From Escherichia phage PGN829.1, in the sequence record NC_070871.1: DNA of 64,000 bases; one strand, given 5' to 3'. The notes beneath the pieces are model-generated. The model was not told where the DNA came from. It was given only the letters and a program-made list of their open reading frames with translations, and searched no databases. Of the stretch, positions 6,105-11,490 are shown one piece after another. Within the stretch, counting starts at the first letter, position 1. The number at the start of each line of letters is the position of its first letter. The translations under genes were made by a program, and so were the position numbers.

Positions 6105-6123
6105 CAAAAGCTGCGGAGCAGCT
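6105..6123 (-). promoter_or_regulatory. candidate N4-type virion-RNAP hairpin promoter (P-c)
   Basis: Top-strand (template) CCAAAA-AGCTGC-GGA-GCAGCT: 6-bp stem, 3-nt GGA loop, G at -8, template C at predicted +1 (6105), 30 nt upstream of gp15-like start. Confidence 0.5.
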
Positions 6124-6128
6124 ATTAC

Positions 6129-6509
6129 CTAAAAGGTTCCCCAGTAGATATAGCCATCTCCTAGAATAGGCTTCCAGGCTTCGTCAAACATGACATTGCC
6201 TGTAGCATTAGCAAACATAGGAGCAATGTCCTCGTCCTTATACCCAGCTAACCCACAACCAATGCGTGTTACTTTAAAGTCCCACTCTGGGTGTGCAGCT
6301 GCATATAGGATGAATGCATCTATGAATACTTTGATGTCATCCAGTTTCATAGACTTGATACGTTGATCTTTGGTTGGGATTGCATAGCTGCAACCATAAT
6401 GGCCTACTCCCATACCCCAACGAGCACCGTGCTTCTTATATGCAACCTTTGCTGCACCAGCACCATGACGGCCTGCTAAATTACTTCCGAATACAAAGAT
6501 CTCTTTCAC
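6129..6509 (-). CDS. small glycine-rich protein, possible nucleotide/ADP-ribose-binding fold
   Basis: Motifs FVFGSNLAGRHGAGAA and RIGCGLAGY loosely resemble macro/SLOG-type glycine loops; family not resolved. Confidence 0.35.
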   Translation of the reverse strand: MKEIFVFGSNLAGRHGAGAAKVAYKKHGARWGMGVGHYGCSYAIPTKDQRIKSMKLDDIKVFIDAFILYAAAHPEWDFKVTRIGCGLAGYKDEDIAPMFANATGNVMFDEAWKPILGDGYIYWGTF

Positions 6510-6688
6510 ACTAACCCCCTTACTTCTTTATAGAATTTAATAGCATCTTCCTGAGATTTAGGCTTAACCTCATAAACACAGTCAAGAGCTTGCTCATGGT
6601 CACGCTGTTCCTTCTTGGTTCGGCAATGACCACATTTACCATCCCATTGGGATACATAGCCTTTACCACATTTGCATTGTTGGTTCAT
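6506..6688 (-). CDS. small Cys-rich (zinc-ribbon-like) protein
   Basis: CKCG...CGHC spacing. Confidence 0.4.
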   Translation of the reverse strand: MNQQCKCGKGYVSQWDGKCGHCRTKKEQRDHEQALDCVYEVKPKSQEDAIKFYKEVRGLV

Positions 6689-6948
6689 TTAAAAGTACTC
6701 CATGGTATGGATTCTAGGTAATTAATTTTATAAATAATCTTACTTCTTATTTCTCCTCCAACATCTTGTACATGAATTAGGTTTAACCTTTGTGCTTGGG
6801 TTATAGTAGCTGCGAGAGTTCTTCCCATAATATTTGATATTTCTATAAAAGATTTATCAGCTTCTACTAATAACTTTAAGTCAGTATTGTCTACATTGTT
6901 CCACTCTTTGGAATGGTTTTTTGGCTTATCCATTGGGATTCTCCGCAA
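6685..6948 (-). CDS. hypothetical protein
   Basis: ORF in operon with 4-bp overlap. Confidence 0.35.
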   Translation of the reverse strand: MRRIPMDKPKNHSKEWNNVDNTDLKLLVEADKSFIEISNIMGRTLAATITQAQRLNLIHVQDVGGEIRSKIIYKINYLESIPWSTFK

Positions 6949-7306
6949 AATAGTTATACATAGCTTTTACGAGCTTCTCTTTAATAACCTCACCATGACA
7001 TGGTTTCGGATAACAGAAGCACTGTAAGGCTAATCCTTTTTCATCTATTGCTTTATTACCAAGACGATTAAGTTCATTCAGTACAACTGGATTCTTTCTC
7101 ATGATTTGTTCATGAAGCCATACTCGATATTTGGTTATAACCTGTTCTCTTGAACCGTCCTTGCCAATGACAAATGGATTACCTAATGGTGAGCCACGTC
7201 CAATATACTCCCCTGATTTACCATGATGTTTATTAACAATAGTAATTGGACGAGCAGATACACCCAGTAAAGCATTGGTGTCATCGCCTAATGTAATAGT
7301 CTTCAT
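6926..7306 (-). CDS. DUF4326-like protein
   Basis: YIGRGSPLGNPF and CFCYPKPCHGEV resemble DUF4326 signatures (YIGR..WGNPF; CWC.P..CHG). Confidence 0.45.
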   Translation of the reverse strand: MKTITLGDDTNALLGVSARPITIVNKHHGKSGEYIGRGSPLGNPFVIGKDGSREQVITKYRVWLHEQIMRKNPVVLNELNRLGNKAIDEKGLALQCFCYPKPCHGEVIKEKLVKAMYNYFAENPNG

Positions 7307-7309
7307 TCT

Positions 7310-7570
7310 TTATTTACCCTGAATTACTAAGTGAGATTCATATAGGTCAACCTTTGCAGAACTTACTACAGGAATTATTTCATCTGTCTTACTAATACGC
7401 ATAGCAGAGCAACCAACCTTCATCCATAAGTAGGTATCAGAATCTTCATTTAGGAATCGAAATACATCACCATTTGCTAAGTCTTGAAATTGAAGCACAG
7501 GCATGGGCTTCTTCTTAATTACCTCTACTTTCATACTATTGACCTTTTGTTTTAAGTACCTGGAAAGCAA
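7310..7570 (-). CDS. hypothetical protein
   Basis: ORF in early operon. Confidence 0.35.
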   Translation of the reverse strand: MLSRYLKQKVNSMKVEVIKKKPMPVLQFQDLANGDVFRFLNEDSDTYLWMKVGCSAMRISKTDEIIPVVSSAKVDLYESHLVIQGK

Positions 7571-7859
7571 ACACAGGACGTTTACTACGCCATTGGTTCA
7601 TAGCTAGTTCACTAGTTTCAGAACCATCATGTAAGTCATAGATAAATGAGATTACATAGTCTGGTTCTTCCGGGAAGTTCTCTGTAGAGAATGGTAGACC
7701 AGACTCCTTAAGGATAGGAACTAGTGGAGATTCAGCATTGCAGTAGAGGGTAAACTCTTCATTGAATGCCTGGCTTGTCTGGGATACATAATCAATATTA
7801 CGCATCATCTTATCTACATCAGTAAATGTAGAATCATGAACTACTAGAATAGTTTTCAT
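7536..7859 (-). CDS. hypothetical protein
   Basis: ORF in early operon. Confidence 0.35.
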   Translation of the reverse strand: MKTILVVHDSTFTDVDKMMRNIDYVSQTSQAFNEEFTLYCNAESPLVPILKESGLPFSTENFPEEPDYVISFIYDLHDGSETSELAMNQWRSKRPVFAFQVLKTKGQ

Positions 7860-8110
7860 ACCTTCCTCAATGTCCCATAGATGTTATTATCGACAATACT
7901 CAAATCACAAAAACCAATCTCTTCTTGTCTCCCAGAGGATACCCAGATATTGTTTTCTGTTAATTTAGGTTTCTTAGAGAACCCTATTAATGAGGTATTA
8001 GCACTTTTATATTGTCGTGACAATAATGCTATATACTTAACCCAGTGAGGCACTTGAATGGTATGTTTCATATATTCCACAGTCTTACCTGTAGGATATG
8101 TAATAATCAT
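7856..8110 (-). CDS. hypothetical protein
   Basis: ORF with 4-bp overlaps. Confidence 0.35.
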   Translation of the reverse strand: MIITYPTGKTVEYMKHTIQVPHWVKYIALLSRQYKSANTSLIGFSKKPKLTENNIWVSSGRQEEIGFCDLSIVDNNIYGTLRKV

Positions 8111-8328
8111 TTTTGATACCCCTGTATATAGTTAATACGACGTATACGTTGAGTAGATGCCTTAACAGCCATCTGTTGATTTTCTTCTTTATGCTGGTTT
8201 TCCAACAGCTTATCCCATTCTTTCTGGTTCCGTTGTTTCTGTAATATACGGCTACAACGCTTATGATTAGCAACTCCTTTACGTTTGTTACATACAGGGC
8301 AAACACCATAATCAGTTGAGTACATCAT
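8107..8328 (-). CDS. small basic Cys/His protein
   Basis: CPVCNKRKGVANHKRC, K/R-rich. Confidence 0.35.
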   Translation of the reverse strand: MMYSTDYGVCPVCNKRKGVANHKRCSRILQKQRNQKEWDKLLENQHKEENQQMAVKASTQRIRRINYIQGYQK

Positions 8329-8329
8329 T

Positions 8330-10296: not shown

Positions 10297-10305
10297 TATG
10301 GTTGA

Positions 10306-10689
10306 TTAGAAAGTCAGTTTACGAGCATATTTATTCTCGTCTGCTGGGATGTCAGCAGCCTCTGCTTTCACACGACGAAGTTGAACTTGCAGGTTAATGA
10401 TACCTTCTTCACCTGGTTCCAGGTTCTGAGCATATTCGATTAACTGTTCCAGCAAGTCGTTCTGTGCACAACGCATAGCACGGAAGTCAGCATTGCTGCT
10501 ATTAGTAGGCAGTGGTTCCTGAGTATCCAGCGGAATACCAGTAGGCAATGAGATGAATTTCTCATCATCAGAGCCTTCATTAGCTACATAACCAATGTTC
10601 AGCCAGAACTGAGCTTTAGGCTTATCAGCCTTAGCAGTAGAAGTAGCAGCAGCGTTAGATTGACCGAAAGTGAATTTTTGAATAGACAT
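10306..10689 (-). CDS. hypothetical protein
   Basis: Start moved to ATG at 10689 (MSIQKF) with GGAGAG RBS; the longer track ORF would swallow the promoter hairpin region. Confidence 0.4.
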
Positions 10690-10792
10690 TTTGTACTCTC
10701 CAGATTTATGTGATTTACGGGTGAACTCGTCGGTGAGAACACCCAAACAAAAGGATAAAAGTTCAATGATTAGTGGATGCATTTACATCATC

Positions 10793-10811
10793 CATAAGAC
10801 GCGGAGCGTCT
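10793..10811 (-). promoter_or_regulatory. candidate N4-type virion-RNAP hairpin promoter (P-b)
   Basis: Template strand CCATA-AGACGC-GGA-GCGTCT: 6-bp stem, GGA loop, G at -8, template C at predicted +1 (10793). Confidence 0.5.
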
Positions 10812-10816
10812 GGTTT

Positions 10817-11035
10817 TTAAGGCTCAAAGCCAGGTTGTAATTGATAAGGTAATTCAACAACTTTCCAGTATCTATCGTGATATTCTGGAGTGGATTCGTT
10901 GATAGCATCTGCAACCTTTTGTGCAGCTTCTTCACTGTGAAAGTAAGGGAGATTCTCTACGAATTTCTCGTCTGGATAATCCCCATCAAAGTTGTCTGTT
11001 TGTACGATTTTAAACTGAGGCATATCTATCTCCAA
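10817..11035 (-). CDS. acidic small protein (hypothetical)
   Basis: 72 aa, D/E-rich. Confidence 0.4.
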   Translation of the reverse strand: MEIDMPQFKIVQTDNFDGDYPDEKFVENLPYFHSEEAAQKVADAINESTPEYHDRYWKVVELPYQLQPGFEP

Positions 11036-11073
11036 AGTAGATAGTTATCTACTTTTGATTGACTATCTAATGT

Positions 11074-11101
11074 TTATAAAAGGAGACTCCGAAGAGCCTC
11101 C
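11074..11101 (-). terminator. intrinsic terminator
   Basis: Stem ggagactc/gagcctcc (1 mismatch) followed on minus strand by TTTTATAAA. Confidence 0.45.
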
Positions 11102-11109
11102 TAGGTGAC

Positions 11110-11433
11110 TTAGTCTTTAGTCAGGATGTCAATTACTTTGGAATATTCTGCGTTATAGATACGAGCGTTCTCTGAATCCTTGCAGAATTCTTCAATACTT
11201 TTCTTACGCAGAGTCTCAGTCATAGCTGTTTCCTCTGCCAGTTTATTAACAAAGGTATGCATTTCTAATTTAGTACGAATGGCTTGTTTCTCTGCCATAG
11301 TACTTACATATGAATTAAGCATACCTACTGCTTTAGTTGCTGTACCGAATGTATCTGCAACAGTAGTAGCAGCTGAGTTAACAGTACCAAGTAAAGTTCC
11401 TGCGGTCATACGTACAGTAGCGGTAGTAGTCAT
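11110..11433 (-). CDS. hypothetical protein (first gene after P-a)
   Basis: GGAG RBS; about 40 nt downstream of predicted P-a start. Confidence 0.4.
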   Translation of the reverse strand: MTTTATVRMTAGTLLGTVNSAATTVADTFGTATKAVGMLNSYVSTMAEKQAIRTKLEMHTFVNKLAEETAMTETLRKKSIEEFCKDSENARIYNAEYSKVIDILTKD

Positions 11434-11471
11434 GATGATAGCTCCAATAGTTGATGATAGGACGACATGTC

Positions 11472-11490
11472 CATAACATGCGGAGCATGT
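11472..11490 (-). promoter_or_regulatory. candidate N4-type virion-RNAP hairpin promoter (P-a)
   Basis: Template strand CCATA-ACATGC-GGA-GCATGT: 6-bp stem, GGA loop, G at -8, template C at predicted +1 (11472); shares CCATA flank with P-b. Confidence 0.5.

Follow-up and report, generated by a model that had tools for sequence, protein, structure and literature searches.

Three near-identical inverted repeats lie in the early region of Escherichia phage PGN829.1, and an initial annotation proposed that they are promoters of the kind used by the virion RNA polymerase (vRNAP) of phage N4. Do these repeats act as hairpins in template DNA, or do they serve in RNA, as duplex operators, or not at all? 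Four decades of work on N4 have clarified the mechanism, structure and determinants of its promoters, and hairpin promoters are routinely recognised in N4-like genomes by similarity. The N4 early promoters for gp50 are reportedly the subject of Haynes & Rothman-Denes 1985, Glucksmann et al. 1992, Davydova et al. 2007 and Gleghorn et al. 2008, and a review covers them (PMC4496689). We analysed the whole 64,000-nt stretch of PGN829.1 DNA (the window) and conclude with high confidence, from sequence comparison, that the three elements are early promoters for the phage's own injected vRNAP and orthologues, by position and sequence, of N4 P1, P2 and P3.

The DNA is that of a G7C-like, N4-like coliphage (Gamaleyavirus). 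Early genes occupy the minus strand, and the left end of the genome falls at ~11574 in window coordinates. Its late region shares 96.7% identity with phage UE-S5a, and its early region is a mosaic at 88–95% identity. Synteny with N4 comprises homologues of gp1, gp2, gp14, gp15 and gp16 at 65–71% amino-acid identity (tblastn). In N4, gp1, gp2, gp15 and gp16 are named as transcribed by vRNAP (PMC13434306).

Architecture of the three hairpins

All three elements are intergenic and lie on the plus strand, the template of the minus-strand early genes. Site 1 (11471–11490, CCATAA-CATGC-GGA-GCATG-T), orthologous to N4 P1, is located ~100 nt from the left genome end. It consists of CC at 11471 and 11472 (+2 and +1), ATAA at −1 to −4, the stem CATGC/GCATG (11477–11481/11485–11489) with a sixth pair A11476:T11490, and the loop GGA (11482–11484), with −11G at 11483 and −8G at 11480. 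From the predicted start at 11472, RNA would run leftwards (minus strand, pppGG...), and the predicted 39-nt leader, which contains GGAG, ends at the ATG (11433) of the gp1 homologue (11110–11433, minus strand; 107 aa, sharing 66% identity with N4 gp1), which would open the putative site-1 transcript.

Site 2 (10792–10811, CCATAA-GACGC-GGA-GCGTC-T), orthologous to N4 P2, has CC at 10792 and 10793, ATAA, the stem GACGC/GCGTC (10798–10802/10806–10810), a sixth pair A10797:T10811, the loop GGA (10803–10805), −11G at 10804 and −8G at 10801. Its predicted start, 10793, lies 11 nt ahead of the ATG (10782) of the gp2 homologue (10306–10782, minus strand; 158 aa, 68% identical to N4 gp2).

Site 3 (6104–6123, CCAAAA-GCTGC-GGA-GCAGC-T), which corresponds to the N4 hairpin that we assigned as P3, directly adjoins the gp14-like stop codon and has CC at 6104 and 6105, AAAA, the stem GCTGC/GCAGC (6110–6114/6118–6122), a sixth pair A6109:T6123, the loop GGA (6115–6117), −11G at 6116 and −8G at 6113. 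The predicted start at 6105 is followed by a 30-nt leader with AGGAG up to the ATG (6075) of the RNAPII small-subunit gene (gp15 homologue; 5257–6075, minus strand, 272 aa), which heads the predicted site-3 transcript; the initial annotation had given the same distance of 30 nt. The predicted leaders of sites 1 and 3 thus both contain a Shine-Dalgarno sequence.

Each site combines a perfect 5-bp, G/C-closed stem with a sixth A:T pair, which is the perfect 6-bp stem initially described, and this is the minimum-free-energy DNA fold. Common to all three are the heptamer GCGGAGC, −12A, −11G, −10G, −8G, a C:G closing pair, AAAA or ATAA from −4 to −1, and a template C at +1, eight bases past −8G, with a further C at +2. 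The initial annotation had located three genuine elements, and its GGA loop, −8G, A-rich −1 to −4 segment and +1C are found at every one. Its first positions, 11472, 10793 and 6105, are correct for the second C, the predicted +1, but not for the first C of the string, and its spelling of the third element, CCAAAA-AGCTGC, contains one A too many, as the sequence has four.

These hairpins might instead function at the RNA level, by intrinsic termination or attenuation of transcripts arriving from upstream, and not as DNA promoters. A simple terminator scan indeed flags site 3 on the sense strand, where AGCUGC-UCC-GCAGCU is followed by UUUUGGUUAUU directly 3′ of the gp14-like stop codon, as well as site 2 on the antisense strand. 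As RNA, however, the three sites fold weakly, at −7.2 to −9.6 kcal/mol (z between −0.5 and −1.9). The region's true terminators are marked by UUCG loops and extended U tracts, and their folding energies are −14.7 to −18.5 kcal/mol (z between −3.2 and −5.4). Because only ~100 nt of genome end precede site 1, there is nothing to terminate at that position, and the invariant loop, −8G and the CC at +1/+2 are not features of terminators. An assignment as intrinsic terminators, defined by a stable G+C-rich RNA hairpin with a U tract, was rejected, a short UUUU being present at site 3 only. The absence of a U tract originally reported accordingly holds for sites 1 and 2, where the sense RNA continues with UUAUGG, but not for site 3, where sense read-through RNA continues with UUUUGG. 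We consider termination in RNA very unlikely as the role of these hairpins; a minor attenuating side-effect may exist at site 3, whose AAAA-type promoter could attenuate read-through from gp14.

Uniqueness in the window and match to phage N4

The string CC-A(A/T)AA-N3-GC-GGA-GC-N3′ has three copies in the window, all on the plus strand. The composite motif C-N4-N3-GCGRAGC-N3′ is likewise found three times on the plus and never on the minus strand, compared to 0.033 expected per shuffled window (both strands). Hairpins of the form N5-GGA-N5′ number three on the plus and two on the minus strand (19574 and 62224). The latter two have neither a GC-closed core nor a CC flank, nor a sixth pair, and since the sixth pair is missing, the whole-window count of N6-GGA-N6′ is exactly three, all on the plus strand, as the initial annotation had expected.

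These numbers bear on whether the sites could be chance palindromes devoid of function. Short perfect hairpins are common, with 114 of 5-bp stem and 3-nt loop in the window, and the heptamer GCGGAGC alone occurs at chance frequency (observed 3, expected 2.4). The signal is the heptamer together with complementarity and flank, not the heptamer alone, and against chance stand the three copies of the composite motif where 0.033 are expected, its confinement to one strand and to intergenic positions of the early region, and the conservation of the hairpins at orthologous positions in N4 and ~20 related loci. Chance can be regarded as a negligible explanation.

We trained a covariance model on the three phage N4 hairpins only and ran it over the whole window. 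Its top three matches are site 3 (33.5 bits), site 2 (30.1 bits) and site 1 (24.4 bits), all on the plus strand, and the fourth-best match scores 16.9 bits. With a 6-sequence model, sites 1–3 score 35.8–39.5 bits and the next match 16.6.

The determinants established for N4 promoters are a GC-rich heptamer centred at −11 (with a purine at −11, −10G and −12A), a C:G pair closing the loop, −8G and a template C at +1, and hairpin extrusion needs the closing pair together with the 5′G and 3′A of the loop (PMC4496689). Every one of these determinants, including the sequence requirements for extrusion, is found at all three sites of the window. In both phages, hairpins precede gp1, gp2 and gp15, with P1 ~100 nt from the left end, and share the template strand, a 5-bp core stem, a 3-nt loop, the heptamer GC-G(G/A)A-GC, −8G, an A-rich −1 to −4 segment and CC at +1/+2. 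The N4 hairpin sequences used here agree with published oligonucleotides for P1 (PMC13434306) and P2 (PMC13492108); the P2 sequence given in the initial annotation was correct. The third element had been taken for a near-copy of P2; it instead matches the hairpin preceding gp15 in N4 at every one of 20 nt, from +2 to −18. We assigned this N4 hairpin as P3 from a scan of N4 and the literature on three promoters and on gp15/gp16 as early genes.

The stem is CATGC at site 1 and GTTGC in N4 P1, and GACGC at site 2 and GAAGC in N4 P2, both changes being compensatory; at site 1, aligning the left ends of the two genomes by sequence only places the altered stem between conserved flanks. The loop is GGA at site 1 and GAA in N4 P1, the extended stems comprise 6 bp in the window and 5, 7 and 7 bp in N4, and the spacing from start to gp2 ATG is 11 nt at site 2 and 10 nt in N4.

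The predicted reader of the three hairpins is encoded at 37030–47400 (plus strand) by a virion RNA polymerase gene of 3456 aa, 66% identical to N4 gp50 and ~70% identical within the polymerase domain. Eight of nine promoter-contact residues checked are kept (K114, R119, W129, K268, K849, K850, D901 and R904, mini-vRNAP numbering). The ninth, K267 in the intercalating hairpin, is replaced by N in the window, which counts against the promoter assignment. Genome identity, position, the N4-only model, the determinants and the cognate enzyme together support the initial reading as promoters of the N4 vRNAP type.

Conservation and covariation in relatives

Among the close relatives sampled, a template-strand hairpin is present upstream of the gp15 homologue in 8/8 loci and upstream of the gp2 homologue in 11/11 loci, the same intergenic positions that the initial annotation had proposed to compare. 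In 31 distinct related sequences, stem pairing is kept in 100% of 155 stem cells, compared to 15–58% of cells in slid controls, and compensatory double changes occur at 4/5 stem pairs. The sequences were gathered with a structure-aware model that rewards pairing, so the figure of 100% is partly circular; this is mitigated by the sequence-only P1 alignment and by the constant location of the hairpins ahead of gp2 and gp15. C+1, C+2 and −8G are invariant among 31–32 related sequences, as are −10G and −12A among the 31 distinct ones. The outer three stem positions vary with complementarity kept (CATGC, GACGC, GCTGC, GGTGC, GTTGC, GAAGC). This comparative set amounts to a clean natural mutagenesis that agrees with N4 biochemistry: the invariant positions are those contacted by the polymerase or stabilising the loop, and stem positions that vary do so in concert.

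The same pattern discriminates between hairpins and palindromic double-stranded operators for a phage or host regulator. An inverted repeat of 13–15 bp, present three times before regulatory genes, is a common operator layout. Yet the outer three stem positions are free to change between sites and phages as long as they pair, which fits a structure and not a duplex read by sequence; the GGA centre and the one-sided CC-A/T-rich flank are asymmetric and strand-specific; and the N4 counterparts were shown by experiment to be hairpin promoters (PMC4496689). A role as operators is thus highly improbable, even more so than one as terminators.

Predicted early transcription units and hairpin promoters of related phages

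We infer promoter function, the start sites 11472, 10793 and 6105, promoter strength, and the requirement for hairpin extrusion and SSB in PGN829.1 by analogy with N4; the literature searched yielded no transcript or biochemical evidence for PGN829.1 or any Gamaleyavirus. If the N4 mechanism carries over, host DNA gyrase would supercoil the injected DNA and the inverted repeats would extrude as small cruciforms. Host SSB would then melt the non-template hairpin (TCC loop) and spare the template hairpin, which should be unusually stable owing to its GGA loop with a sheared G:A pair on the C:G closing pair. The polymerase domain of vRNAP would bind this hairpin, with the intercalating hairpin marking the −5/−4 junction and the four A/T bases acting as spacer, and the first nucleotide, GTP, would be placed opposite the template C located eight bases past −8G.

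RNAs from the three starts would run leftwards into three predicted units, gp1, gp2 and gp15-HNH-gp16, each followed on the minus strand by a strong intrinsic terminator with a UUCG loop and a U tract. The terminator after gp1 (11075–11102; 9-bp stem, −14.7 kcal/mol, z −3.2) is the likely end of a short site-1 transcript; a second follows gp2 (10266–10297; 9-bp stem, −15.0 kcal/mol, z −5.1); and the third (3413–3448; 11-bp stem, −18.5 kcal/mol, z −5.4) likely ends the site-3 unit after the RNAPII large-subunit gene (gp16 homologue; 3455–4672, minus strand, 405 aa), predicted to belong to the same unit as the gp15 homologue. The products of gp1, gp2 and the RNAPII genes would switch on middle transcription; N4 gp2 is an ssDNA-binding cofactor of RNAPII. 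Between the site-2 unit and site 3 (10266–6129), no hairpin promoter was found, and because the genes there have none of their own, the hairpin data do not set the early/middle boundary.

The sites are correct, ordinary and already known in kind. Their value is in annotation, providing PGN829.1 with defined early promoters, predicted starts and three early units, and it extends to the G7C-like coliphages G7C and SP5M, whose GenBank records, both inspected, contain no promoter features. No new question is opened, and importance beyond annotation is small.

The number of hairpins differs between relatives. From the left end to gp2, the window has two, whereas G7C, IME11, pSb-1 and KP8-like genomes have at least three. 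Islands of homology restricted to the hairpin, with replaced flanks, occur at P3 in two loci (L004, L009) and at P2 in one (L018). A doubtful, though conceivable, extension is that hairpin promoters are portable regulatory cassettes, reshuffled in number and strength between Gamaleyaviruses; in that case the early programme, with no fixed three-promoter design, would be tuned as hairpins are gained, lost and exchanged.

The core of site 2 has been published as a predicted promoter of Klebsiella phage KP8, found there by similarity to N4: its ‘P2’, AAGACGCTCCGCGTCTTATGGA, is the reverse complement of the site 2 core (PMC6950046, Table 1). KP8 differs in having four hairpins (P1–P4), the additional one lying after gp1 and before the gp2-proximal promoter, where the window has three in total and the GACGC hairpin is itself gp2-proximal. 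Early hairpin promoters have been mapped by ONT-cappable-seq in Pseudomonas phage LUZ7, with nine early starts (PMC9163698), and predicted in LIT1/PEV2 (PMC3715699) and in Pectobacterium CB1-like phages (PMC6027278). These share with PGN829.1 the template-strand hairpin, the 3-nt loop, the location in a schitovirus early region and initiation with G, but belong to distant genera with another consensus, stems of at least 4 bp and a start 13–14 nt from the hairpin centre.

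Template-strand hairpins of the N4 early promoter type

Three GGA-loop hairpins lie on the top strand of the window, at 11471-11490 (site 1, CCATAA-CATGC-GGA-GCATG-T), 10792-10811 (site 2, CCATAA-GACGC-GGA-GCGTC-T) and 6104-6123 (site 3, CCAAAA-GCTGC-GGA-GCAGC-T); folded as single-stranded DNA, each forms a 6-bp stem closed by a 3-nt loop. The initial annotation, which had read these elements as early promoters for a phage N4-type virion RNA polymerase (vRNAP, gp50), is correct in substance: all three strings are present where it placed them and are exactly described, except that its start coordinates fall on the second C and its third string carries one A too many. 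A whole-window scan returned 114 perfect hairpins with a 5-bp stem and a 3-nt loop, only three of which are top-strand hairpins with the loop GGA; the two bottom-strand GGA-loop hairpins have neither a G/C-closed core nor a sixth pair nor the CC flank. The composite motif C-N4-N3-GCGRAGC-N3' occurs three times on the plus strand and not on the minus strand, against 0.033 occurrences per shuffled window. The bare heptamer GCGGAGC (3 observed, 2.4 expected in the window) is not above chance, and a 16-mer allowing 2 mismatches gives 3 observed against 1.4 expected; both ignore complementarity and are therefore uninformative as significance tests, and we used the composite motif and covariance models instead.

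We scanned the template strand of the leftmost 12 kb of N4 (NC_008720) and found three hairpins of this type: (i) TCCATAA-GTTGC-GAA-GCAAC before gp1, which is the native P1 template as printed (PMC13434306), (ii) CCAAAA-GAAGC-GGA-GCTTC before gp2, which agrees with the P2 oligonucleotide (PMC13492108), and (iii) CCAAAA-GCTGC-GGA-GCAGC-T before gp15, assigned here as P3. A covariance model trained on these three hairpins only, with which the whole window was searched with filters off, ranked the three sites first, at 33.5, 30.1 and 24.4 bits and in plus-strand orientation throughout (E 5e-7 to 3e-4); the match after them reached 16.9 bits. Including the window sites in the model yielded nothing more above 17 bits in the window, and 57 kb of N4 contained nothing above 11 bits beyond its three promoters. 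Covariance models and composite motif give no additional promoter scoring above 17 bits in the window; of the sub-threshold matches, those at 56615, 24859 and 52428 are without a proper hairpin core and that at 10273-10306 is the gp2 terminator.

Each site is the orthologue of one N4 promoter. Site 1 corresponds to P1 and, like it, precedes the gp1 homologue, with some 100 nt separating it from the left end; in a plain sequence alignment of the termini the flanks GTCCATAA ... GTGTAACGTG are conserved and the stem is altered on both sides. Site 2 corresponds to P2, with the stem GACGC/GCGTC in place of GAAGC/GCTTC, and precedes the gp2-type ATG by 11 nt (10 nt in N4). Site 3, which had been taken for a nearly exact copy of P2, lies between gp14 and gp15 and is instead identical to the assigned P3 from +2 to -18 (+1, predicted start; -11, loop centre). 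Sites 1 and 2 share with P1 a T at position -2.

Extrusion and recognition by N4 vRNAP require -11A/G, -10G, -8G, +1C, a closing G:C pair, and a loop 5'G and 3'A that form a sheared G:A pair, and the four A residues act as a ruler without base contacts (PMC4496689). All determinants listed there are carried by each of the three sites. The window also encodes a vRNAP of 3456 aa (37030-47400) that matches N4 vRNAP structures; in a MAFFT alignment its identity to N4 gp50 is 66% over the whole protein and about 70% in the polymerase domain. It retains K114, R119, W129, K268, K849, K850, D901 and R904 together with the catalytic D559 and D951; of the residues checked, only K267 differs (to N).

Conservation and covariation in related phages

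The initial annotation had proposed a comparison with other N4-like genomes at the same intergenic positions. In IMG/VR loci around gp15 and gp2 homologues, a template-strand hairpin precedes the gene in 8/8 close gp15 loci and 11/11 gp2 loci. The core stems observed are GCTGC, GGTGC, GTTGC, CATGC, GACGC, GAAGC and GGCGC, always with a matching 3' arm. Across 31 distinct sequences, stem cells are paired to 100%, a fraction inflated by collection of the set with a structure-aware model, and compensatory changes occur at 4/5 pairs; the -8G:-14C pair is constant. This circularity is mitigated by hairpin positions that are fixed by neighbouring genes and by the P1 case, which is visible in a sequence-only alignment. 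Moving the partner by 1–3 columns as a control lowers pairing to 15–58%. C+1, C+2, -8G, -10G and -12A are invariant in the related set. An origin of the sites as chance hairpins is excluded by this conservation together with the composite-motif statistics. Operators recognized as duplex DNA are unlikely, because stem bases change without loss of pairing and the flanks lack symmetry.

The distant gp15 homologues of loci L011 and L012 (31–37% identity) gave no model match, so the consensus does not reach unchanged across the family. In the distant locus L023 (gp2 47% identical), hairpins at 1446-1474 and 800-828 have the same CC-ACAA flank and the loop GCA, which places a pyrimidine at -11 in contrast to the N4 purine rule and suggests a co-evolved polymerase specificity. 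In some relatives the interval between gp1 and gp2 holds one or two additional promoter-like hairpins with lower scores (G7C, locus L013, 791-819 and 498-526; L019, 1215-1243; L022, 1198-1226; L015, 1209-1237); one example is CC-GTAA-GCTGT-GGA-ACAGC, in which the closing pair is T:A. No such hairpin occurs in this interval of the window. Four promoters are reported for Klebsiella phage KP8, and the promoter count between gp1 and gp2 varies within the subfamily.

Two further loci (L004, 885-913; L009, 911-935; compared with window 6104-6132) have an insertion of about 270 nt, which is probably one more small ORF, directly downstream of the P3 start; it leaves a hairpin-only homology island and would be transcribed under the control of P3. 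In comparisons with 21 related loci, homology blocks end at 6132/6104 and 10807-10822, and equally frequently at other gene boundaries (6926, 7548, 8581, 9082 and 9562); with no special enrichment of breaks, we rejected promoter hairpins as preferred recombination junctions.

This promoter class is among the best characterised in phages, and similarity-based prediction of such promoters is routine for N4-like genomes, as for KP8 (PMC6950046), whose 'P2' carries the site 2 core, CB1-like phages (PMC6027278) and LUZ7/LIT1 (PMC3715699); the LUZ7 promoters were validated by TSS mapping (PMC9163698). No promoter features are annotated in the G7C and SP5M GenBank records, and our literature search found no report of hairpin promoters for Gamaleyavirus. 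The predicted sites are therefore an annotation gain rather than a discovery.

Predicted early transcription units

By transfer from N4, host gyrase would drive hairpin extrusion, host SSB would stabilise the template hairpin, vRNAP would then bind, and initiation with GTP would occur at 11472, 10793 and 6105. Three minus-strand units are predicted: gp1 up to the terminator 11102-11075, gp2 up to that at 10297-10266, and gp15-HNH-gp16 up to that at 3448-3413. These terminators are uniform, with a 9–11 bp stem, a UUCG tetraloop and a T-rich tract; further minus-strand terminators lie at 13587-13612 and 1854-1876, and 14.5 kb contain 23 terminator-like sites where 8.5 would be expected. A terminator scan also flags site 3 (sense strand) and site 2 (antisense strand), as if the hairpins themselves were intrinsic terminators acting in RNA. 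However, the RNA hairpins of sites 1–3 have marginal stability (-7.2 to -9.6 kcal/mol, z -0.5 to -1.9) compared to the real terminators after gp1, gp2 and gp16 (-14.7 to -18.5 kcal/mol, z -3.2 to -5.4), and their context also counts against this reading, which we reject in favor of promoters.

The predicted leaders of sites 1 and 3, 39 and 30 nt long, contain GGAG/AGGAG. The usual gp2-like start, ATG 10782, lies 11 nt from the predicted transcript start and lacks a Shine-Dalgarno sequence. Further downstream, GGAGAG stands before an in-frame ATG at 10689, and the PHROG profile starts at residue 32; this second ATG may be the true start.

Genome terminus and early gene order

The early region of the window (5000-13000) matched 82 phage records; the best matches listed are G7C/Bp4-type N4-like phages (Gamaleyavirus) of Escherichia and Shigella and one Klebsiella phage, with 88–95% identity in mosaic pieces. 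Over the late region (24000-48000), identity to Escherichia phage UE-S5a (Gamaleyavirus, family Schitoviridae) is 96.7%. Numerous GenBank records start at about window position 11,574, where the N4 left end also aligns. The window therefore extends across the genome terminus; its first 11.5 kb represent the early left arm in reverse-complement orientation, with genes on the minus strand from about 1 to 11,500. The window contains no direct repeats of at least 40 nt and hence no second terminal-repeat copy of site 1; with the terminus crossed in this way, the assembly is circularly permuted or collapsed. In the G7C record, 1-1160 is annotated as containing the terminal repeat. The terminal ~80 nt beside site 1 (11491-11574) are conserved with the N4 left end and contain seven consecutive G on the top strand as well as a 9-bp inverted repeat, GGCTACACC...GGGTGTAGCC. 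Rfam and tRNA scans of the window gave no matches.

Using tblastn with N4 proteins, we located minus-strand homologues of gp1 (11433-11122, 66% identity), gp2 (10782-10309, 68%), gp14 (6509-6132, 71%), gp15 (6069-5266, 65%; ORF 5257-6075) and gp16 (4672-3458, 69%; ORF 3455-4672) in N4 order. Between the two RNAPII subunit genes gp15 and gp16, which are adjacent in N4, the window carries an HNH/endonuclease VII-like ORF (4674-5267, minus strand, 197 aa) that overlaps the gp15 stop; G7C has the same arrangement, annotated as homing endonuclease gp15.1. A second HNH endonuclease ORF of 157 aa lies at 9087-9560 (minus strand), and homology to relatives stops precisely at the two ends of this ORF (9562 and 9082-9085), as a mobile insertion would be expected to show.
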